IMG/VR virus record: IMGVR_UViG_2778261154_000002
Reading direction: 5' to 3' (one strand)
DNA from: a virus
Taxonomy: Duplodnaviria; Heunggongvirae; Uroviricota; Caudoviricetes
DNA length: 14,117 nt
The translations under genes and the position numbers were made by a program. Below, one piece after another: positions 1-8,163 of this stretch (its first letter is position 1; every line of letters starts with the position of its first letter). The notes under the pieces are model-generated. The model made no database searches. It worked only from the letters and a program-made list of their open reading frames with translations, and had not been told where the DNA came from.

Positions 1-199
1 GGTGCTCGTCAAAGGAAAATGCCCTGTGCCATCCTCAGCCGAAACCTCCAGCGCCTCCGGCATGGGCAATGATGCCACCGTCGAACTCTCTCCAGTTGCT
101 GGACGAAACGTTCTCGGTATCCGGGACGGAATCATCAGCGACCAGACAGCATTGAGAATGCTTCAGGAGTACATCAGGATCCAATGCCTTGGGGGGTAG
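1..199 (+). CDS. 3' end of an unidentified ORF running off the left edge (hypothetical protein, C-terminal ~65 aa)
   Basis: Frame is open from the window edge to TAG at 197-199. No motif recognised; its position upstream of the terminase genes suggests the end of the lysis or late-regulatory module, but that is a guess. Confidence 0.3.
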   Translation, partial: VLVKGKCPVPSSAETSSASGMGNDATVELSPVAGRNVLGIRDGIISDQTALRMLQEYIRIQCLGG

Positions 200-287
200 C
201 GGTAATTTTACTCATTATCCTTCAAATCAGATTCTGTTGTCAGAGGAATGGGGGAAGCTGGATTCGCAAGAGCTTTTTATGGGCAGT

Positions 288-797
288 TTAGCTAAAAAAA
301 GGCAACACGAAGCTAAAACTACCAACATAAAGTGCTGACCAGCTAGCAGCTGAAATCAGACTCACTGTATACACTTTCACTGGATGAAGTTGCAACATTC
401 CTGCCACCAAAGGAGCAATATAACGCAGCACGGCGATAAAGCGCGAAGTGAAAAGTATTGACACAGAGTTATTTTGCAACTGAAGGCGAACCCGTTCTAT
501 TGTATTGGAACGGCTCGATATTATACATGCAAGTTGAGGGATATGCCCAATTATTATACCAAGATGGTAATTAACGATAGTACCGCACCATGCGCCACTC
601 ATGACCGTGATTCCAGCTTCCCATGGTGAAAGAGTCGTCTTGCTGACTGTAATTACAGTGGCCATCATAATTGATGCTGGTGGCAATATCGCCGAAATGA
701 GTAAAGTGGATTTTGTGAACGCTATTATAAAAAGAAGCCCCCATAGGCGATATGGATGAAGTACAAAATAGTTCATCAAAGCATTTATCCACTCCAT
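288..797 (-). CDS. Small inner-membrane protein, DedA/YqaA-like (VTT-domain superfamily); prophage moron
   Basis: Minus-strand ORF with ATG at 795-797 (a TTG sits one codon upstream at 798-800) preceded by AAGGA; stop at 288-290. About 169 aa with several hydrophobic spans. By eye it resembles E. coli YqaA-type DedA proteins (ILPPASIMMATVI... GAWCGTIVNYHLG... RFIAVLRYIAPLVAG). The region is clearly AT-richer than the flanking phage genes and is oriented against the late operon. Confidence 0.55.
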   Translation of the reverse strand: MEWINALMNYFVLHPYRLWGLLFIIAFTKSTLLISAILPPASIMMATVITVSKTTLSPWEAGITVMSGAWCGTIVNYHLGIIIGHIPQLACIISSRSNTIERVRLQLQNNSVSILFTSRFIAVLRYIAPLVAGMLQLHPVKVYTVSLISAASWSALYVGSFSFVLPFFS

Positions 798-994
798 CAA
801 TGTCTTTCCTTCTGTGAATTTTTCTTTGCTATTTAACCGTGATACGACTTAATTTAGGCTTAAACACCTTACATTTACAAGGTACTCCTGTGGGGGGCCC
901 TGCCACGGAGCGTCGCAGGAGTGAGTGATGAGGAAGAATTAAAGCAACCTATTGTGACAGGCAGCGATAACAGTAAATCACAGGAAGCATAATC

Positions 995-1759
995 ATGGCA
1001 AAACCGGACTGGGAGGCCATCGAATCGGCATACCGGGCCGGAGTCCTTAGCCTCCGTGATATAGGCGAGAAATACGGCGTTACAGAAGGGGCTATCAGGA
1101 AGAGGGCCAAAAAGCTTGGTTGGGCACGCAGTGGCGGTACGCAGGTTTGCAAAAATGGTACGCAAAAAAGGAAAGTGCGTACCAGCAGAAAGCCTGCCAT
1201 TACTGGCCTTACACAAAAAAGTACGCAACTAAAAACAGAATCTACACCGGATACGAAACCGATACGCGGAATGCGTACCGATCCCCCGACTAACCCATTC
1301 CAACCCGGTAACCAGCAGGCATTAAAACACGGTGGTTATGCCCGTCGCCTTCTGCTCAAAGATGAGGTGATAGAGGACGCTAAAGCGTTGACGCTCGAGG
1401 ACGAATTATTTCGCCTTCGTGCTAACAACCTTGTCGCTGCAGAGAATATTGGCCGGTGGTTGGTGTCGCTGGAAGATGCTAATGGGGACCAGGAAAGGAA
1501 GATGCTGATTGAAAATATCAGCGCCGCCGAGAAAGCAATGATGCGCAATACAATTCGTATTGAGTCCATCGTTGGCACGCTTGCGACGGTAGGAAAAATA
1601 TTTGCTGATACAGCCTACCGCAAGGCCGCCACTGATAAGGTGTCTCTGGAGGCTGATCGTCTTCGCCGTGATGCAGGTATTGATGATGGCAATGGAGAGC
1701 GTGACCTCAATGACTTCTACTCTGACATCCAAACCGACGCTGAATCCGGCTTTACGTAG
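995..1759 (+). CDS. terS: Phage terminase small subunit (HTH-containing)
   Basis: ATG at 995 preceded by AGGAAG; stop TAG at 1757-1759. The N-terminus (MAKPDWEAIESAYRAGVLSLRDIGEKYGVTEGAIRKRAKKLGW) looks like a helix-turn-helix, followed by a basic region and a NPFQPGNQQALKHGGY motif typical of small terminase subunits. It lies immediately upstream of the large terminase subunit. Confidence 0.8.
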   Translation: MAKPDWEAIESAYRAGVLSLRDIGEKYGVTEGAIRKRAKKLGWARSGGTQVCKNGTQKRKVRTSRKPAITGLTQKSTQLKTESTPDTKPIRGMRTDPPTNPFQPGNQQALKHGGYARRLLLKDEVIEDAKALTLEDELFRLRANNLVAAENIGRWLVSLEDANGDQERKMLIENISAAEKAMMRNTIRIESIVGTLATVGKIFADTAYRKAATDKVSLEADRLRRDAGIDDGNGERDLNDFYSDIQTDAESGFT

Positions 1760-3113
1760 TTTCTGGACTATGCGGGCACGTAACAAAGTGCTTTATGGTG
1801 GTCGGTCATCGTCAAAATCATGGGATGCCGCTGGCATTGCCATATTTCTGTCGAATAAATACACCCTGCGTTTTTGTTGTGCCCGTCAGATCCAGAATAA
1901 AATCGAAGAGTCGGTGTATACCCTGCTCAAAATTCAGATAGACAGGTTTGGTCTGCGGCACCGTTTCCGTATTCTGAACAACAAAATCATAAACCGGGTT
2001 ACTGGCTCGGAATTTGTTTTTTATGGATTATGGCGCAACATCGAAGAAATTAAGTCACTGGAGGGGATCGATGTGTTGTGGCTGGAAGAAGCCCACGCAC
2101 TGACGGAATACCAGTGGAAAATTCTGGAGCCAACGATCCGTAAAGAGGGTTCGGAATGCTGGTTCATATTCAACCCCGGACTTGTTACTGATTTCGTCTG
2201 GCGCAACTTCGTTGTTGATCCGCCCGAAGGCACTCTCATCCGCAAAATTAACTATGACGAAAATCCGTTTCTGTCTGACACCATGCTTAAGGTTATCGAC
2301 GCGGCGCGACGCCGTGATCCGGATGGTTTTAAACATGTGTATGAGGGCGTTCCGGAGTCTGATGATGATGCGGCAATCATCAAACTGTCTTGGATAGAAG
2401 CCGCAGTGGATGCGCACAAAACGTTAAATTTCGAACCCAGTGGAAGAAAGCGTATTGGCTTTGACGTGGCTGACAGTGGTACAGATAAGTGCGCTAACGT
2501 TTACCGTCACGGATCCGTTGTTTTCTGGGCCGACGAATGGAAGGCCAAAGAAGATGAATTACTGAAGAGCTGCCAGCGTACTTATCAGGCGGCGCTGGAG
2601 CGTGAAGCAGATATTGTTTACGACTCTATCGGTGTTGGTGCGTCTGCCGGTGCTAAATTCTCTGAAATTAACGCTGACCGGAAGAGCGAGAACGCATACG
2701 CGCGACGTGTGAATTACCAGAGGTTTAACGCCGGTGCTGGTGTGCATGAGCCAGATGACGAGTACAACGGCATCCCCAACAAAGACTTTTTCGCAAATCT
2801 TAAGGCTCAGGCATGGTGGCTGGTGGCTGACCGTTTCAGAAATACGTTTAACGCCATTAACAACGGAGAACAGTATCCTGTGGATGAGCTGATCAGCATA
2901 GATTCTCGTTGTCCGTTGCTTGAAAAGCTGAAACTGGAACTGACAACACCTCATCGTGATTTCGACCGTAACGGACGTGTGATGGTCGAAAGTAAAAAAG
3001 ACCTCGCAAAACGCGAGATACCGTCACCAAACGTTGCTGATGCATTCATTATGGCCTTCGCGCCAATCGATACATCGCTGGATATCTGGGAACAGCTGGG
3101 GAGACAGGCCTGA
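1710..3113 (+). CDS. terL: Phage terminase large subunit (PBSX / Terminase_3-like ATPase-nuclease)
   Basis: Walker A-like VLYGGRSSSKSWD near the N-terminus and a Walker B-like VLWLEEAH. Stop TGA at 3111-3113 overlaps the portal ATG. The start is ambiguous: in-frame ATGs at 1671, 1683, 1686, 1692, 1710 and 1770. I chose 1710 (GGAGAG upstream) because the conserved-looking LNPALRSFW segment precedes the 1770 ATG; this gives a 50-nt overlap with terS. Confidence 0.85.
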   Translation: MTSTLTSKPTLNPALRSFWTMRARNKVLYGGRSSSKSWDAAGIAIFLSNKYTLRFCCARQIQNKIEESVYTLLKIQIDRFGLRHRFRILNNKIINRVTGSEFVFYGLWRNIEEIKSLEGIDVLWLEEAHALTEYQWKILEPTIRKEGSECWFIFNPGLVTDFVWRNFVVDPPEGTLIRKINYDENPFLSDTMLKVIDAARRRDPDGFKHVYEGVPESDDDAAIIKLSWIEAAVDAHKTLNFEPSGRKRIGFDVADSGTDKCANVYRHGSVVFWADEWKAKEDELLKSCQRTYQAALEREADIVYDSIGVGASAGAKFSEINADRKSENAYARRVNYQRFNAGAGVHEPDDEYNGIPNKDFFANLKAQAWWLVADRFRNTFNAINNGEQYPVDELISIDSRCPLLEKLKLELTTPHRDFDRNGRVMVESKKDLAKREIPSPNVADAFIMAFAPIDTSLDIWEQLGRQA

Positions 3114-4579
3114 TGGCACGAAACAAACAAGCCCTGCGGCGAACTGTGCAGGCCACAGCTGATGGTTATGAGAATTTTATTGCCCGCGTAGGGATGCAGA
3201 CACCTAACCAGCACTCAGCATCCACCTACCGGGCTAATTTCACCAGTCGTAACCGCATGCTGGTGGAATGGTCCTATCGTTCATCCTGGATCATCGGCGA
3301 AGCAGTCGATGCTATCCCGGATGATATGACCCGCAAAGGCATTCGCATCACTTCGGAAATTGATGCAAAAGATCGTGGCATTCTCGAATCACAACTGGAT
3401 GAGTTGCAAATCTGGGATGCGCTGAATGACGTGCTGAAATGGTCGCGCCTCTACGGCGGCGCGGTGGGTTTCATCATGATTGAGGGGCAGGCACCAATGA
3501 CCCCGCTGCGACCCGAAACCATCGGTAAGGGCAAGTTTAAGGGGATTCTCCCGCTCGACCGCTGGATGGTCGACCCGGCACTGACCCGCCGCATTAAAGA
3601 TATGGGGCCGGACCTGGGTAAACCTGAGTTTTACGATGTGGTGACCACAGCAACGGGAATTCCTGCCTGGCGCATTCATCACAGTCGCCTGATTCGCTTT
3701 GATGGCGTCACGTTGCCATTTCAGCAGAAGATGACCGAGAACGAATGGGGAATGTCGGTTGTAGAGCGTATCTGGGATCGTCTTACCGCGTTCGACAGCG
3801 CTACTGTCGGCGCGGCGCAGCTGGTCTACAAGGCGCATTTGCGTACCTACAGCGTGGAGAAGCTACGCGAGCTTATCGCACTTGGTGGTCCTGCGTATGA
3901 AGCGTTGCTGAAGAATATCGACCTGATTCGACAGTTCCAGAGTAATGAAGGCATGACGCTCATGGACTCGCGGGATAAGTTTGAAACCCATCAGTACAGC
4001 TTCAGTGGTCTGGATGACATCCTTTCGCAGTTTGCAGAACAGATTAGTGGCGCTGTTGGTATCCCACTGGTGCGGTTGTTCGGACAGTCCCCGAAAGGAT
4101 TTTCTACCGGTGATGCAGACCTTGCCAACTATTACGATCGCATCAGTTCGTTGCAGGAGAGGCGTTTACGTCTTCCGGTGCGGCGGATACTGGACATCAT
4201 GCATCGTTCGGAACTTGGCAAGCCGCTGCCGGACGATTTCACGTTTGAGTTTAACCCGCTCTGGCAAATGTCTGATGTCGATCGCTCAACGGTGGCGTTA
4301 AACACCACCAACGCAATCAGTACGGCGCTGGGTGATGGTCTGATGACACTGAAAGCCGCTATGACTGATTTGCGAGAAAATTCTGACGTAACCGGCATCG
4401 GGGCATCCATTACCGACGAGGACATCGAGAATGCCGAAGATGAAGCGCCGCCCGGCATCGGCGAACCTGATGACGAACCGCAGGAGCCGTCAGGCGGAAA
4501 TCCGGTATCGAACCAGCCTACGCAGGATAGCGAGGGCGGTCGGAGACATCGTAAATGGTCGCTACGATGGTTCAAATGA
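3113..4579 (+). CDS. Phage portal protein (DUF1073-like)
   Basis: 488-aa ORF translationally coupled to terL (TGATG overlap). Position after the terminase, size and the acidic C-terminal tail (EDIENAEDEAPPGIGEPDDEPQEPSGG) are typical of portal proteins. Family assignment is by resemblance only. Confidence 0.85.
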   Translation: MARNKQALRRTVQATADGYENFIARVGMQTPNQHSASTYRANFTSRNRMLVEWSYRSSWIIGEAVDAIPDDMTRKGIRITSEIDAKDRGILESQLDELQIWDALNDVLKWSRLYGGAVGFIMIEGQAPMTPLRPETIGKGKFKGILPLDRWMVDPALTRRIKDMGPDLGKPEFYDVVTTATGIPAWRIHHSRLIRFDGVTLPFQQKMTENEWGMSVVERIWDRLTAFDSATVGAAQLVYKAHLRTYSVEKLRELIALGGPAYEALLKNIDLIRQFQSNEGMTLMDSRDKFETHQYSFSGLDDILSQFAEQISGAVGIPLVRLFGQSPKGFSTGDADLANYYDRISSLQERRLRLPVRRILDIMHRSELGKPLPDDFTFEFNPLWQMSDVDRSTVALNTTNAISTALGDGLMTLKAAMTDLRENSDVTGIGASITDEDIENAEDEAPPGIGEPDDEPQEPSGGNPVSNQPTQDSEGGRRHRKWSLRWFK

Positions 4580-5213
4580 CAGTATCACGGAAATTATTGC
4601 GGCGCTGGAGCGTTACAGTGAAATCATCACCCCCTGGGCGACAAAGGTCGCGGAAAACTTTACTGCGGACCTAACCCGGCAGAACGAGAAAGTTTGGCGG
4701 CAACACAGCAAGAACATCAGTCGCGAGCTCCGCAATCTTGTGGAAAGCGCTCCTGTGGGCCAGGTGATGCAATCCATCATCGCCGAACAGGTCAAGTACA
4801 TCAAATCTCTGCCTCTCGAGGCCGCAGACAGGGTGTACGACATCCAGAACAAAGCGATAGAGGCTGTTGTCACCGGTGGTCGGGCGGAGCAGTTTGCTAA
4901 AGAGATTGCATCTACCGGCGATGTTGCTAAGTCTAGGGCCGATCTGATTGCCCGAACGGAACTGGGAAGAGCAACGGGCGCGCTGGATATGGCCCGAGCG
5001 ATAGCTATTGGCTCGGATGGTTATATTTGGCGTACAGCCGATGATGGCGATGTCCGAGATTCCCACGATCACATGAAAGGTAAATTCGTCCGCTGGGATT
5101 CACCTCCAACTTTGGACGGCATGACCGGCCACGCGGGCGAGCTGCCAAACTGCCGCTGCTATAAAGAGATCGTGTTTGTTCGCGTTCCATTCGCAATGAA
5201 AAGGGCAGCATAA
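4431..5213 (+). CDS. Phage head morphogenesis protein, SPP1 gp7 / Mu F-like (minor head protein)
   Basis: 260-aa ORF ending in the family-typical C-terminus (DVRDSHDHMKGKFVRWDSPP ... ELPNCRCYKEI). ATG at 4431 is preceded by GAGGA. The start lies 149 nt inside the portal ORF in another frame; alternative in-frame ATGs are at 4440 and 4470. Confidence 0.75.
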   Translation: MPKMKRRPASANLMTNRRSRQAEIRYRTSLRRIARAVGDIVNGRYDGSNDSITEIIAALERYSEIITPWATKVAENFTADLTRQNEKVWRQHSKNISRELRNLVESAPVGQVMQSIIAEQVKYIKSLPLEAADRVYDIQNKAIEAVVTGGRAEQFAKEIASTGDVAKSRADLIARTELGRATGALDMARAIAIGSDGYIWRTADDGDVRDSHDHMKGKFVRWDSPPTLDGMTGHAGELPNCRCYKEIVFVRVPFAMKRAA

Positions 5214-5216
5214 CCC

Positions 5217-6437
5217 ATGAAATACTTTTTTGAGACCAGGCTCGGGGAAACCCGATACCGCCTGGCTGACGGCTCGTTGCTGTGCAAAGACGTGCCGATA
5301 GGACGAACAGGTAAGCAGCTCTATGGTGCTGATGACCTGCCAAAACTGAAACCCGATAAGTTCGGTGAAATAGTCGTCACGCGTTCTCCTGAGCAGGTAT
5401 TCCATCCGGCCACGCTTGCCTCATTCGAAGGGATGAGCATCACGATCCTGCATCCTGAAGATGAAAACGGGAATGTGCGGCTGGTAAATCCCGAGAACTG
5501 GAAAGAGCTTGCTGTCGGGCACCTCCAGAATGTCCGGCGCGGGACGGGTGAGCAGTCTGATTTGATGCTGGCTGACCTTATCGTCAAAGACGAAAGCGCC
5601 ATTCAGCTTATCGAAGATGGCCTGCGCGAAGTGTCGTGCGGCTATGACGCGGAGTACGAGCAGACCGAGCCAGGTAAAGCCGAGCAGGTCGATATTACCG
5701 GAAACCATGTGGCTCTTGTCCCTAAAGGCAGAGCCGGAAATCGTTGTGCAATTGGAGACAGAGACACAATGGCAAATCAAAAGAAAAACTGGTGGAACCG
5801 CATGCGTGCGGCCATCAAGACAGGAGATGCCGACACCATGAACGAACTGGTGGAGTCGGCTCCCGCATCGGTTACAGGAGATGAGGGGGATTTGCCGCAG
5901 GGCGTTAATCTCAACATCAACCTGTCCCCGCAGCAACCACTACCGGACAAAGCACCAGAGATGGGCGGAGATCCAACCGGCGACAGTGATGATGACCTCA
6001 AAACATTACTGAAAGCCCTGCTGGCTAAGCTGGAAAGAAATGCCACGGGCGATAACGATAATAAGCCTGACGATAATCCGACCGGTGACGGCGAGGACGA
6101 TGAAGAGGAAACCACGATTACTGGTGACTCAGCCTGGCGTGCCGAAGTTATCGTTCCGGGTATCGATCTGAGCCGTAAGATGAAACCGACCGCGTTCAAA
6201 CGCGAGGTTCTGGCTTCTGCTGACAAAACGCTGGTTCGCCAGATAGTCGGTGATGCGGATATCCGCAAATTACCGAAACAATCGGTCGACATGGCGTTTA
6301 ATGCCGTGTCTGAGGTTGCCAAAGGGCGAAACACCCGCGCCACCACCGGCGATGCACAGCGCCTAAACATGGGCATGACCAGTATCGCTTCCCTGAACAA
6401 ACAAAACGCTGAATTCTGGGCAAGCCGTAAAGGGTAA
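5217..6437 (+). CDS. Putative prohead protease / scaffolding fusion protein (DUF2213-like)
   Basis: 406-aa ORF starting 4 nt after the head morphogenesis stop. N-terminal globular half, central acidic low-complexity linker rich in TGD motifs, and a C-terminal predicted helical segment. Its position between the MuF-like gene and the major capsid gene fits a protease/scaffold. Confidence 0.65.
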   Translation: MKYFFETRLGETRYRLADGSLLCKDVPIGRTGKQLYGADDLPKLKPDKFGEIVVTRSPEQVFHPATLASFEGMSITILHPEDENGNVRLVNPENWKELAVGHLQNVRRGTGEQSDLMLADLIVKDESAIQLIEDGLREVSCGYDAEYEQTEPGKAEQVDITGNHVALVPKGRAGNRCAIGDRDTMANQKKNWWNRMRAAIKTGDADTMNELVESAPASVTGDEGDLPQGVNLNINLSPQQPLPDKAPEMGGDPTGDSDDDLKTLLKALLAKLERNATGDNDNKPDDNPTGDGEDDEEETTITGDSAWRAEVIVPGIDLSRKMKPTAFKREVLASADKTLVRQIVGDADIRKLPKQSVDMAFNAVSEVAKGRNTRATTGDAQRLNMGMTSIASLNKQNAEFWASRKG

Positions 6438-6440
6438 AAA

Positions 6441-6947
6441 ATGAATAATGTATTTCTGTACCGGATGCCTGTTGGCATTGCCGGGGCTGTCTCTCGCCCG
6501 CAGGACTTAACCGTCGAACCGGTGGTCCTTAAATCCGATAACGCCTTCGCTGCCTATGGCCTGGCTGGTAAATACGATGATGACGGTTTTTTCGTGCCGC
6601 TGGCAGATGGTGATACCGCAGACAAGGTGAAGGGGATCTACGTGCGCCCTTATCCGACCACGTCGCAGCCGGACATGGTTCGCCAGGTGGGAACAGGCAA
6701 GAACTTCCCGGGCGACGCCATGAAGCGTGGCTACGTGACCGTTAATCTCGGTTCTGATTTTGATGCCAGCACTATCAAAAAAGGCGATCCGGTATACGTT
6801 GTCGTCTCCACTGATGAATCCATCAAAGTGCCGCTGGGTGGATTCATGTCCACGTCAGTCAGTGGCAAAAACGTGGTGCTGACCAACGCTGAATTCACAG
6901 GTGCCGGTGATGCTGACGGCAATGCAGAAATTTCCTGGAAGATTTAA
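6441..6947 (+). CDS. Putative capsid decoration / structural protein
   Basis: 168-aa ORF with AAGGG RBS, immediately upstream of the major capsid gene. Function is inferred from position and size only. Confidence 0.55.
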   Translation: MNNVFLYRMPVGIAGAVSRPQDLTVEPVVLKSDNAFAAYGLAGKYDDDGFFVPLADGDTADKVKGIYVRPYPTTSQPDMVRQVGTGKNFPGDAMKRGYVTVNLGSDFDASTIKKGDPVYVVVSTDESIKVPLGGFMSTSVSGKNVVLTNAEFTGAGDADGNAEISWKI

Positions 6948-6958
6948 GGAACAGACGA

Positions 6959-7900
6959 ATGATTACTTTTGATCAGGCAACCGTTGACAGCTCTGGTGCC
7001 TTTCTCATCGGGGAGCTGGAGCGACTCGACCAGACGCTGAACCTGCCACTGGTGGGGTACACCTGGAGCCGCGATATTCAACTGCGTGAAGACGTCTCCA
7101 TCGCAGATGACATTTCCAGCTGGACGAATACCAGCTTCGCCGCTGCGGGTACTGGCGCAAATCCGAATGGAAAAAACTGGGTAGGCAAAGACTCAACCGC
7201 TATTGCTGGCGTGAACGTGGATATCGGCAAATCCGGTAACCCGCTGAACCTGTGGGGGATGGAACTTGGCTGGACGGTCATAGAATTGCAGGCTGCTCAG
7301 CAGGTCGGCCGCCCGATTGATACGCAGAAGTATGACGGTATGCAACTGAAATGGCAGATGGATAACGATGAACAGGTATATGTTGGCGATTCCGCATTAA
7401 ACCTGAAAGGCCTTGTTACCCTGGACGGCGTGCCTGTCAACAACGCTGCCAAAACGTGGGCAACCTCAACACCGGACGAAATCCGCGCAAGCATTAACCA
7501 GGTGCTGTCTGATGCGTGGGCCGCTTCTGGTTACTCTGTGGTTCCGCGTGATTTGCTGATCCCGCCTGAGCAGTTTGCTCTGTTGTCCAGCATCATCGTT
7601 TCATCTGCAGGTAACCAGTCCCTGTTGACGTACCTTCAGACCAACACCATCAGCTATCACCAGAACGGTGTTCCGCTGAATATCCGCGCGGTTAAATGGC
7701 TGAAAGGCCGTGGTGTGGGGAATAAGGATCGCATGGTTGCGTACACCAACGATAAAAAATACGTCCGCTACCCGCTGGTTCCGCTTCAGAGCGTGCCGGT
7801 GCAGTATCGCGGTCTGTATCAGATCGTCACTTACTACGGCAAGCTGGGTGCAGTCGAGCCAGTGTACAAAGAAACCATTTCGTACGTTGATGGCATTTAA
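6959..7900 (+). CDS. Major capsid protein (DUF2184-like, HK97-fold inferred)
   Basis: 313-aa ORF with AAGGA RBS and TAA stop at 7898-7900. Size and position after protease/scaffold and decoration-like genes fit a major capsid protein. It is followed by a GC-rich hairpin. Confidence 0.75.
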   Translation: MITFDQATVDSSGAFLIGELERLDQTLNLPLVGYTWSRDIQLREDVSIADDISSWTNTSFAAAGTGANPNGKNWVGKDSTAIAGVNVDIGKSGNPLNLWGMELGWTVIELQAAQQVGRPIDTQKYDGMQLKWQMDNDEQVYVGDSALNLKGLVTLDGVPVNNAAKTWATSTPDEIRASINQVLSDAWAASGYSVVPRDLLIPPEQFALLSSIIVSSAGNQSLLTYLQTNTISYHQNGVPLNIRAVKWLKGRGVGNKDRMVAYTNDKKYVRYPLVPLQSVPVQYRGLYQIVTYYGKLGAVEPVYKETISYVDGI

Positions 7901-7907
7901 CAGCCAT

Positions 7908-7928
7908 ATGGCCCCCTGGCGGGGCCAT
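7908..7928 (+). promoter_or_regulatory. Perfect 8-bp GC-rich stem-loop (ATGGCCCC-ctggc-GGGGCCAT) just 3' of the major capsid gene
   Basis: Inverted repeat read directly from the sequence. There is no downstream U-tract, so it is more likely an RNA stability or processing element, or a partial attenuator, than a classical intrinsic terminator. Confidence 0.35.
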
Positions 7929-7941
7929 TAAGGATGACCCG

Positions 7942-8163
7942 ATGGCAAAAAATAATGCAGTAATACACGTACATACCCCGTTTGTGCTCACGCTTCCCGA
8001 CGGTTCGCGGCGCGAGTTTGTTAAAGGCCGTCATGCAGTGGAGGAAGACGTTGCCACGCACTGGTTCACTCGTGCGCACGCGGAAGTATCCGTTGGCAAA
8101 GCCACAGACGCGCGTAACGAGGTAAAAAATGCCAAAGAATCAAAGTCTGCCAGCGGTAAGTGA
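7942..8163 (+). CDS. Small hypothetical phage protein (73 aa)
   Basis: ATG at 7942 preceded by AAGGA at 7-nt spacing. It sits between the capsid gene and the head-tail joining genes and has a lysine-rich C-terminus. No family recognised. Confidence 0.5.

Follow-up and report, generated by a model that had tools for sequence, protein, structure and literature searches.

We analysed a 14,117-nucleotide stretch of viral DNA (Duplodnaviria; Heunggongvirae; Uroviricota; Caudoviricetes; IMG/VR record IMGVR_UViG_2778261154_000002), referred to here over its full length as the window, and focused on a minus-strand gene located between the lysis and terminase genes of a prophage. This gene encodes a small membrane protein of the DedA family and belongs to a narrow clade in which the essential glutamate of the canonical family member YqjA is replaced by lysine and the accompanying aspartate by alanine, with the phosphate-binding arginines retained. 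That we are dealing with a DedA-family accessory gene is almost certain, and a functional product maintained by selection is highly probable; the overall explanation of gene and protein developed below is the best available one, and we lean modestly towards it. As phage cargo the gene is ordinary, morons in the slot between Rz and terminase being textbook cases, and it is already annotated, since RefSeq lists the product of identical Escherichia coli DNA as 'DedA family protein' (WP_011069285.1). What may matter as new relative to this annotation is the Lys-for-Glu protein type rather than the cargo status.

The open reading frame (ORF) listed for the locus (288-800, minus strand) comprises 170 codons and begins with TTG; however, the ATG at 797-795 corresponds to the start conserved in all homologues, which gives a protein of 169 residues ending at the stop codon 290-288. 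A sequence-only reading of the window had proposed a DedA/YqaA-like membrane protein. Membership in the DedA family was borne out by a search with the PF09335 (VTT_dom) hidden Markov model (HMM), which matched residues 41-161 to profile positions 3-121 of 123 with E=9.2e-14 and 52.4 bits, well over the gathering score of 33.9. The best NCBIfam matches were to DedA PRK10847 and UptA, at scores far under the equivalog cut-offs (31 versus 236 bits, 19.9 versus 250 and 16.3 versus 300), and a weak match in PHROGs pointed to an unnamed DedA-like family (phrog_33251, E=3e-7). The resemblance to YqaA, on the other hand, did not hold up. A profile of the clade scored 57.8 bits on YqjA (COG0586), as opposed to 11.6 on YdjX and -1.3 on YdjZ (both COG0398) and 8.7 on YqaA (COG1238), and the single window sequence reached 6.2 bits against E. 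coli YqaA. Since its residue pattern is moreover opposite to that of COG1238, membership in this group was rejected. As judged from these sequence comparisons, a YqjA-like protein stemming from the COG0586 (YqjA/UptA-like) branch is well supported.

In both BLASTP and HMM alignments to YqjA, K29 of the window protein takes the position of E39, A41 that of D51, and R119/R125 those of R130/R136. All four YqjA residues are essential and are placed in the middle of the dimer next to a modelled lipid site (bioRxiv 10.64898/2026.09.20.752871), R112/R118 of UptA bind undecaprenyl phosphate (Und-P, C55-P) (PMC11474028), and the acidic pair is presumed to be the proton-binding site, with the arginines presumed to hold the phosphate (PMC10127716). 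UptA E32 probably falls at the D51/A41 position by NCBIfam coordinates, not at K29, and was not used as evidence for the latter. An alignment of all profile matches shows the pattern K-S-[TV]...P-P-A-[SY] in every member of the tight clade, as against E-[SA]-x...P-G-x-x in the outgroup DedAs, where the first position is glutamate in about 115 of 117 sequences (with one D and one Q). Across the 64 genomic loci described below, K-S-T...P-P-A-S is retained wherever the N-terminus is present. R119 and R125 were invariant in a first alignment of 20 sequences, and two clade representatives added later carry Lys at 119. The clade is devoid of any invariant acidic residue, and the window protein contains only three acidic residues in total (E2, E60 and E101). 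The clade is also sharply delimited: among 1.84 billion representatives, the profile search returned only 12 at E<=1e-30, after which the scores fall sharply to about 85 bits, the next-nearest relatives being mostly VTT-PAP2-LssY_C proteins of about 670 residues.

In order to place this signature within the superfamily, we compared it with the three DedA subfamilies that Todor et al. set by the acidic residues of re-entrant helix 1 and the arginines of re-entrant helix 2 (PMC10127716). According to this scheme, COG0586 has both the acidic residues and the arginines, COG0398 lacks the acidic residues and has lost one or both arginines, and COG1238 has the acidic residues without the arginines (PMC10127716). 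The Lys-type clade lacks the acidic residues, one of them being charge-reversed, and possesses both arginines, a combination that, going by the aligned positions, is outside the three patterns. It shares the absence of acidic residues in re-entrant helix 1 with COG0398 (YdjX/YdjZ, TMEM41B/VMP1-like), members of the same superfamily which are thought to be scramblases independent of the proton-motive force (PMF) (PMC10127716), but differs from them in its arginines and is the reverse of COG1238. With YqjA, YghB and UptA the window protein has in common the VTT/DedA domain, the predicted two-hairpin core and the two arginines of re-entrant helix 2; compared with YqjA it is only 24% identical, about 50 residues shorter and without the C-terminal helices. 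The DedA-PAP2(-LssY_C) fusions, which Todor et al. assign to COG0586 (PMC10127716), likewise have a short N-terminal DedA core (about 160 residues) with both arginines, but they keep the glutamate and continue into phosphatase and LssY_C domains, whereas the window protein is a stand-alone domain with lysine. The Lys-type residue pattern, the restricted clade and the Mg2+/PhoP setting of its members (see below) appear to be undescribed, and our literature searches returned no paper on members of the clade or on a phage- or prophage-borne DedA.

[quoted passage not shown] The model is consistent with a DedA core lacking the C-terminal helices of YqjA, predicted to consist of an N-terminal helix, three membrane helices, two re-entrant hairpins and two amphipathic helices. 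A fold search of the viral structures in BFVD returned only weak matches, to a giant-virus 'SNARE associated Golgi protein' (E 0.5, TM 0.47).

Several lines of evidence indicate that the gene is maintained as a coding sequence. The exact protein is found on at least 1000 contigs, mainly of Shigella flexneri, while among 5426 complete E. coli genomes a 901-bp query (window 150-1050) is fully covered in four and covered to 98% and 77% in two more. The ratio of nonsynonymous to synonymous substitution rates (dN/dS) is 0.15-0.25 against the Citrobacter copies, as expected under purifying selection, and 0.25 against the other phage-borne copy, that of Citrobacter youngae. In E. coli VL7S7 (locus L027, 4704-5872) an IS911 element lies immediately upstream of the DedA gene, at the equivalent of window position ~845; the DNA between IS911 and the distal tail genes is gone, and the DedA gene and the lysis cassette are kept.

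The sequence-only reading had described the gene as an AT-rich moron, transcribed against the late operon and expressed from the prophage. The compositional part of this description was confirmed: the G+C content (GC) of the gene is 42.0%, and 38.8% at third codon positions (GC3), compared with 52.5% in the late operon (995-13431), where GC3 ranges from 47 to 62% per gene. None of the 510-bp segments across 995-13400 is as low as the gene (minimum 45.7%, mean 52.6, standard deviation 2.5), and the spacers on either side (200-287 and 798-994) are likewise AT-rich, with a GC of 42-43%. Evidence for an insertion comes from a prophage of E. coli CDE6306, which has small and large terminase subunits (TerS/TerL) 98.4% identical to those of the window and lysis genes that directly abut TerS, with no DedA gene between them. 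Similarity to many lambdoid prophages stops just after Rz, at 228-243, and similarity to phages sharing the terminase begins at 988-993. At the left junction, the short hydrophobic ORF overlapping the Rz stop has a counterpart of 50 codons in other lambdoid prophages (WP_001139678.1), followed by a hairpin and a T-run, and the similarity to these prophages breaks off at about 228-250; in the window the insertion replaces the 3' part of this ORF together with its hairpin.

A gene encoding a 78%-identical protein occupies the corresponding position in C. youngae prophages, on the opposite strand, with lysis genes (holin, GH19 endolysin) on one side of it and a lambda-type GpA terminase on the other; these prophages also have a lambda-type portal, in contrast to the PBSX-type packaging genes of the window. 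The similarity between the two at the DNA level is restricted, within window 1-1800, to a single block made up of the gene, 10 bp on its 3' side and 75 bp on its 5' side, which we consider the transferable unit. In this block the conserved 5' portion with its -10-like TTAAAT and direct repeat moves together with the gene. To the right of it, a spacer of 115 bp occurs only in the five E. coli genomes with this prophage type, even at blastn sensitivity, and folds no better than shuffled sequences (z=-1.1). An Rfam search of window 1-1200 gave no credible match. The span originally singled out (200-994) thus contains the gene, but about 115 bp of it (873-987) lie outside both the transferable unit and the terminase module. 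Relatives carry other minus-strand accessory genes in the Rz-to-terminase slot, namely DUF1398 and ynfO, and borD, ybcV and ylcI in DLP12 of E. coli K-12. The bor gene of lambda, which is expressed from the prophage, has an effect on serum resistance. Like lambda bor and DLP12 borD, ybcV/DUF1398 and ylcI/ynfO, the DedA gene follows Rz on the opposite strand and is patchily distributed among relatives; Bor, however, is a small lipoprotein unrelated to the DedA protein, and the DedA gene is without a recognisable promoter or terminator. Because it is absent next to a near-identical packaging module, differs in composition and has a same-slot relative in Citrobacter beside a different terminase, the gene is well supported as a horizontally acquired moron in the structural sense, oriented against the late operon. 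Insertion, composition, orientation and same-slot relatives all stand, then; what was not found, by consensus scan and folding, is a promoter and terminator of its own. Since the closest chromosomal relatives (72-74% identity) are found in Kosakonia and Citrobacter, the donor was likely a chromosome of this type, judging by sequence relatedness, and the gene would have been taken up with about 75 bp of its 5' region.

To determine how widely the clade is distributed, we scanned 185,579 species-representative genomes and obtained 64 loci, all in Enterobacterales: 31 in Enterobacter/Lelliottia and close relatives, 16 in Arsenophonus (some with complete genomes of 0.85-0.93 Mb), eight in Morganella, three in Citrobacter, two in Kosakonia, and one each in Hafnia, a metagenome-assembled genome, Shigella and E. 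coli. Only the Shigella/E. coli and C. youngae copies are located between phage lysis and terminase genes; the rest are chromosomal. GC of the gene is 53-59% in Enterobacter and Citrobacter amalonaticus, 46-47% in the C. youngae prophage and Citrobacter meridianamericanus, and 42% in the window. A tblastn search of 50,697 phage records gave nothing above 30% identity, the matches falling on fragment-sized records and one titled Salmonella enterica, so the clade is unrepresented in these records. IMG/VR contains only the two prophage types and one further contig (L042, 73% identity). The L042 copy was rejected as phage cargo; it lies beyond the repressor gene of a Mu-like prophage, with repressor, MuA and MuB on one side and SRAP, SMEK and Macro-domain genes on the other, and is most likely in the host flank. 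A porin gene neighbouring the C. amalonaticus copy was considered as a prophage remnant and likewise rejected, as its orientation does not fit a simple deletion. In C. meridianamericanus a dinI-family gene (L017 6584-6826) is found directly upstream of the chromosomal, 74%-identical DedA copy, and the edge of the C. youngae prophage likewise has a dinI gene (L002 13974-14207), a hint that in C. meridianamericanus the copy may be what is left of a prophage. Separately, Hafnia alvei (L021 6035-6607) and 'Enterobacteriaceae bacterium bta3-1' (L025 5979-6554) carry a second VTT-domain gene of about 190 codons, which is on the opposite strand to the Lys-type gene and 0.5 kb downstream of it, with a YgbA_NO gene in between.

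Many cellular members of the clade neighbour a gene for a Mg2+ channel. In 26 of the 31 Enterobacter/Lelliottia loci mgtE is divergent and lies 385-515 bp upstream of the DedA gene, in five of the 16 Arsenophonus loci it follows about 1.1 kb downstream on the same strand, and the gene order in Hafnia is mgtE-tetR-MFS-dedA; in all eight Morganella loci corA is convergent with the DedA gene. None of the copies in phages, Citrobacter or Kosakonia has a Mg2+ transporter in its vicinity. Upstream of the DedA gene in 22 Enterobacter species, 99-122 nt before the start, we found a perfect PhoP box, (T/G)GTTTA-N5-(T/G)GTTTA, in direct orientation. In one such mgtE-dedA intergenic region (L019) the perfect box TGTTTAAGAACGGTTTA at 6897-6913 is the sole one in the 473 kb scanned, with 2.6e-4 expected in the intergenic region, and 12 nt upstream of TCTAAT there is another box, which matches at 10/12 positions (6934-6968). 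More generally, the Enterobacter and Citrobacter copies have a proximal 9-10/12 box that precedes a -10-like hexamer (TTAAAT or TCTAAT) by exactly 12 nt, and this hexamer ends 27-36 nt before the ATG; half-sites and hexamer are conserved and the spacers vary. The proximal box lies at a position homologous to that of the conserved 5' block seen in the Citrobacter and phage copies, and TTAAAT is shared without change by the window, the two chromosomal copies of Citrobacter and the copy in the C. youngae prophage, the adjoining spacers being variable.

In 'architecture I/II' PhoP-activated promoters (mgtA, phoP, ybjX and others) the box is spaced in this way from the -10 element (Zwir et al., PMC3335776). 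The Enterobacter and Citrobacter candidates match these promoters in the 12-nt distance between box and hexamer, and Enterobacter has the second, perfect box upstream; unlike in the known promoters, the proximal boxes reach only 9-10/12, and in the window copy the gap is 13 nt and the second half-site weak. Taken together, the sequence pattern suggests that the Enterobacter mgtE-dedA pair may be under PhoP control. For the cellular members of the clade as a whole we regard a PhoP/Mg2+ linkage as evenly balanced, and for the window copy as unlikely.

How might such a protein work? With three fixed positive charges (K29, R119 and R125) and no conserved carboxylate in its core, it would still be able to bind an anionic lipid head group. 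Undecaprenyl phosphate would be the most likely substrate, favoured because of descent from the COG0586 branch, nearest relatives that are fused to PAP2 and arginines that have been kept, with an anionic phospholipid as the alternative. Because the protonatable Glu/Asp pair is absent, the protein would act independently of protons, as an equilibrative flippase or scramblase, or would merely bind lipid. We put forward such proton-uncoupled handling of anionic lipids only tentatively, as a reading of the residue pattern that falls somewhat short of even chances. In the cellular members, the mgtE/corA linkage and the Enterobacter PhoP boxes would point to a role in the envelope response to low Mg2+ or cationic peptides, in which modification of lipid A with Und-P-linked 4-amino-4-deoxy-L-arabinose (Ara4N) would raise the demand for recycling of the carrier lipid; COG0586 DedAs are required for Ara4N-dependent colistin resistance in several genera (PMC10127716). 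The phage copy would provide a lysogen with such an activity, as cargo for lysogenic conversion, and its regulation may differ, as its PhoP-like site is the most degenerate of the set. In its fullest form, this proposal would make the Lys type a fourth kind of DedA protein, a proton-independent Und-P flippase with a built-in counter-charge that takes part in the PhoP/low-Mg2+ envelope response of Enterobacterales beside mgtE or corA and was captured by temperate phages of Citrobacter and Shigella/E. coli as a conversion gene altering envelope remodelling or cationic-peptide tolerance; as a whole, we think this unlikely.

A number of observations weigh against the account given here. The exchange of Glu for Lys could equally mean a loss of transport. 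The first re-entrant hairpin is the least confident part of the model (pLDDT 52-60 for residues 31-50), and searches of the PDB by sequence and by fold (Foldseek) retrieved no solved DedA structure, all matches having E>3. The adjacency to mgtE and corA is in part synteny inherited within genera, so that the counts do not represent independent events, and the perfect PhoP box in the divergent intergenic region could serve mgtE instead of the DedA gene. As to the window itself, its PhoP-like repeat is the most degenerate of the copies, with a 1-nt insertion and a weak second half-site, and a single 9/12 match to the PhoP box is reached in 23% of shuffled sequences and is not significant alone. 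The consensus scan gave neither a sigma-70 promoter upstream nor an intrinsic terminator downstream of the gene, and the downstream flank folds no better than shuffles (z=+0.8). Among the 117 genes differentially expressed in a phoPQ mutant of S. flexneri 301 (PMC5775216), the DedA gene was not identifiable, its locus tag not being known.

Among the other explanations, the one that survives best is that the protein is a canonical, PMF-driven Und-P flippase or membrane-homeostasis factor of the YqjA/UptA type, which would give the host a ninth paralogue and more resistance to cationic peptides. The affiliation with the COG0586-like branch with both arginines kept, the fusion of the nearest relatives to PAP2 phosphatases and the involvement of COG0586 DedAs in colistin resistance mentioned above would all fit, but both acidic residues essential in YqjA and YghB are absent throughout the clade, one of them charge-reversed, a YqjA with E39A/D51A should, going by earlier phenotypic evidence, not function (bioRxiv 10.64898/2026.09.20.752871), and the NCBIfam scores remain far under the DedA and UptA equivalog cut-offs. 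We therefore judge canonical function, which the sequence-only reading had assumed, to be quite improbable, and with K29 in place of E39 and A41 in place of D51 the polymyxin and exclusion phenotypes it had envisaged are not simply transferable.

Alternatively, the protein might act directly in the homeostasis of Mg2+ (or Ca2+) together with MgtE or CorA, for instance as an accessory factor or regulator of cation flux, and not on lipids. Apart from the recurrent mgtE/corA adjacency and the Enterobacter PhoP boxes, published work ties DedA proteins to Mg2+/Ca2+ homeostasis, namely XdfA (PMC10470534) and YqjA/YghB of Klebsiella pneumoniae (PMC10846249). Yet a core that contains three cationic residues but lacks a conserved carboxylate is a poor binding site for cations, the published cation phenotypes of DedA mutants are indirect, and the copies in phages, Citrobacter and Kosakonia have no such transporter as a neighbour, all of which makes a direct role decidedly improbable.

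The absence of the essential acidic residues and of the C-terminal helices might also be taken as the mark of a transport-dead DedA core that pairs with host DedAs or alters the inner membrane and thereby blocks DNA entry of superinfecting phages or modulates host envelope synthesis. DedA proteins dimerise via their re-entrant hairpins (bioRxiv 10.64898/2026.09.20.752871), and the slot between Rz and terminase typically houses surface or exclusion genes expressed from the prophage, such as borD. Against such interference, about 60 species, among them Arsenophonus symbionts whose genomes are smaller than 1 Mb, carry members of the clade as ordinary genes of the chromosome, purifying selection and the invariant lysine argue for an autonomous cellular function, and the PADLOC defence models gave no match; we hold it to be highly improbable. 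Equally poor are the prospects of a silent passenger, an unexpressed or H-NS-silenced remnant with no present function in Shigella/E. coli, for although the window prophage is defective, promoter and terminator were not found, the PhoP-like site is degraded and the gene is the most AT-rich of all copies, the uninterrupted ORF is the same on at least 1000 contigs, dN/dS is low even against the other phage-borne copy, and the gene was kept beside the IS911-mediated deletion that reaches the distal tail genes.

Turning to the surroundings of the gene, a prophage beside ybhA/modC in E. coli FDAARGOS_944 matches window 1-13403 at 99.97% identity, and it is well supported that the window derives from a lambdoid prophage with PBSX-type packaging, integrated beside ybhA in S. 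flexneri and a few E. coli strains. The features around the DedA gene are listed in the table below. In the identical E. coli DNA the spanin gene is annotated 'lysis protein', and the start of the large terminase gene at 1710 is that of the RefSeq annotation. The sequence-only reading had regarded the DedA gene as the only plausible non-structural cargo in the window, but the right end also holds an IS3-family element (13404-14117; rve, rve_2 and rve_3 integrase-core domains; ORF 13428-14033, minus strand). This element breaks the tail tape-measure/lytic-transglycosylase gene, which is unbroken (1953 bp) in FDAARGOS_944, where identity to the window ends at 13403; since the tape-measure gene is split from 13404 onwards, the prophage in the window is defective.

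Table. Features of the window around the DedA-family gene.
Feature	Position	Strand	Evidence or remark
Rz-type i-spanin gene, 3' part; last gene of the lysis cassette	2..199	+	PF03245 Phage_lysis E=1.1e-7; phrog_13 Rz-like spanin E=2.2e-20
35-codon small hydrophobic ORF remnant overlapping the Rz stop; marks the left insertion junction	184..291	+	
Transferable unit: DedA gene, extended by 10 bp on the 3' side and 75 bp on the 5' side	278..872	-	82.5% over 595 bp to C. youngae prophage
Coding sequence, 169 residues plus stop; minimal-core DedA-family inner-membrane protein (predicted)	288..797	-	PF09335; dN/dS; AlphaFold2 model
Codon R125	425-423	-	
Codon R119	443-441	-	
Codon A41	677-675	-	
Codon K29	713-711	-	
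Shine-Dalgarno-like AAGGA, 9 nt before the ATG	807..811	-	read from sequence
-10-like hexamer TTAAAT, ending 33 nt before the ATG	831..836	-	conserved across copies
Degenerate PhoP-box-like direct repeat TGTTTA-AGCCT-AAATTA, 9/12, 13 nt upstream of the -10-like hexamer	850..866	-	
Weak sigma-70-like candidate TTGTAA-18 nt-TAAATT, 8/12, window-specific	851..880	-	read from sequence; below promoter-scan threshold
Lineage-specific spacer with G+C-rich inverted repeat (~884-922)	873..987	.	not in the Citrobacter unit nor in TerS-sharing phages
Small terminase subunit gene; first gene of the packaging/late structural operon	995..1759	+	phrog_370 E=2.2e-94
Large terminase subunit gene, PBSX/Terminase_3 type	1710..3113	+	PF04466 E=4.5e-38; TIGR01547 E=3e-41

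Two further features were observed upstream of the lysis cassette. A cluster of four tRNA genes occurs there in FDAARGOS_944 (Ile, Arg, Thr, Gly; L001 17881-18191) and, with Val as the fourth, in VL7S7 (Ile, Arg, Thr, Val; L027 2272-2578). Related lambdoid prophages have a porin gene of the ompC/nmpC type on the minus strand just upstream of the cassette (L009 1-491; L010 1-946; L043 530-2826), a position that constitutes a further accessory slot in the same region of the genome.

For S. flexneri, these findings mean that the gene represents a widespread prophage-borne, predicted envelope protein. For the DedA family, the mgtE/corA synteny and the PhoP boxes of the cellular members may place the connections that have been reported among DedA proteins, Mg2+ and polymyxin resistance in a regulatory setting. 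A gene termed 'dedA(Ecl)' is reported for colistin heteroresistance in Enterobacter cloacae (cited in PMC9832134). The coupling of lipid flipping by DedA proteins to the proton-motive force is now being approached with alanine mutants of the Glu/Asp pair, and the Lys-type clade, conserved and under selection in about 60 species-level members, would provide a natural test case for flipping without a protonatable pair.

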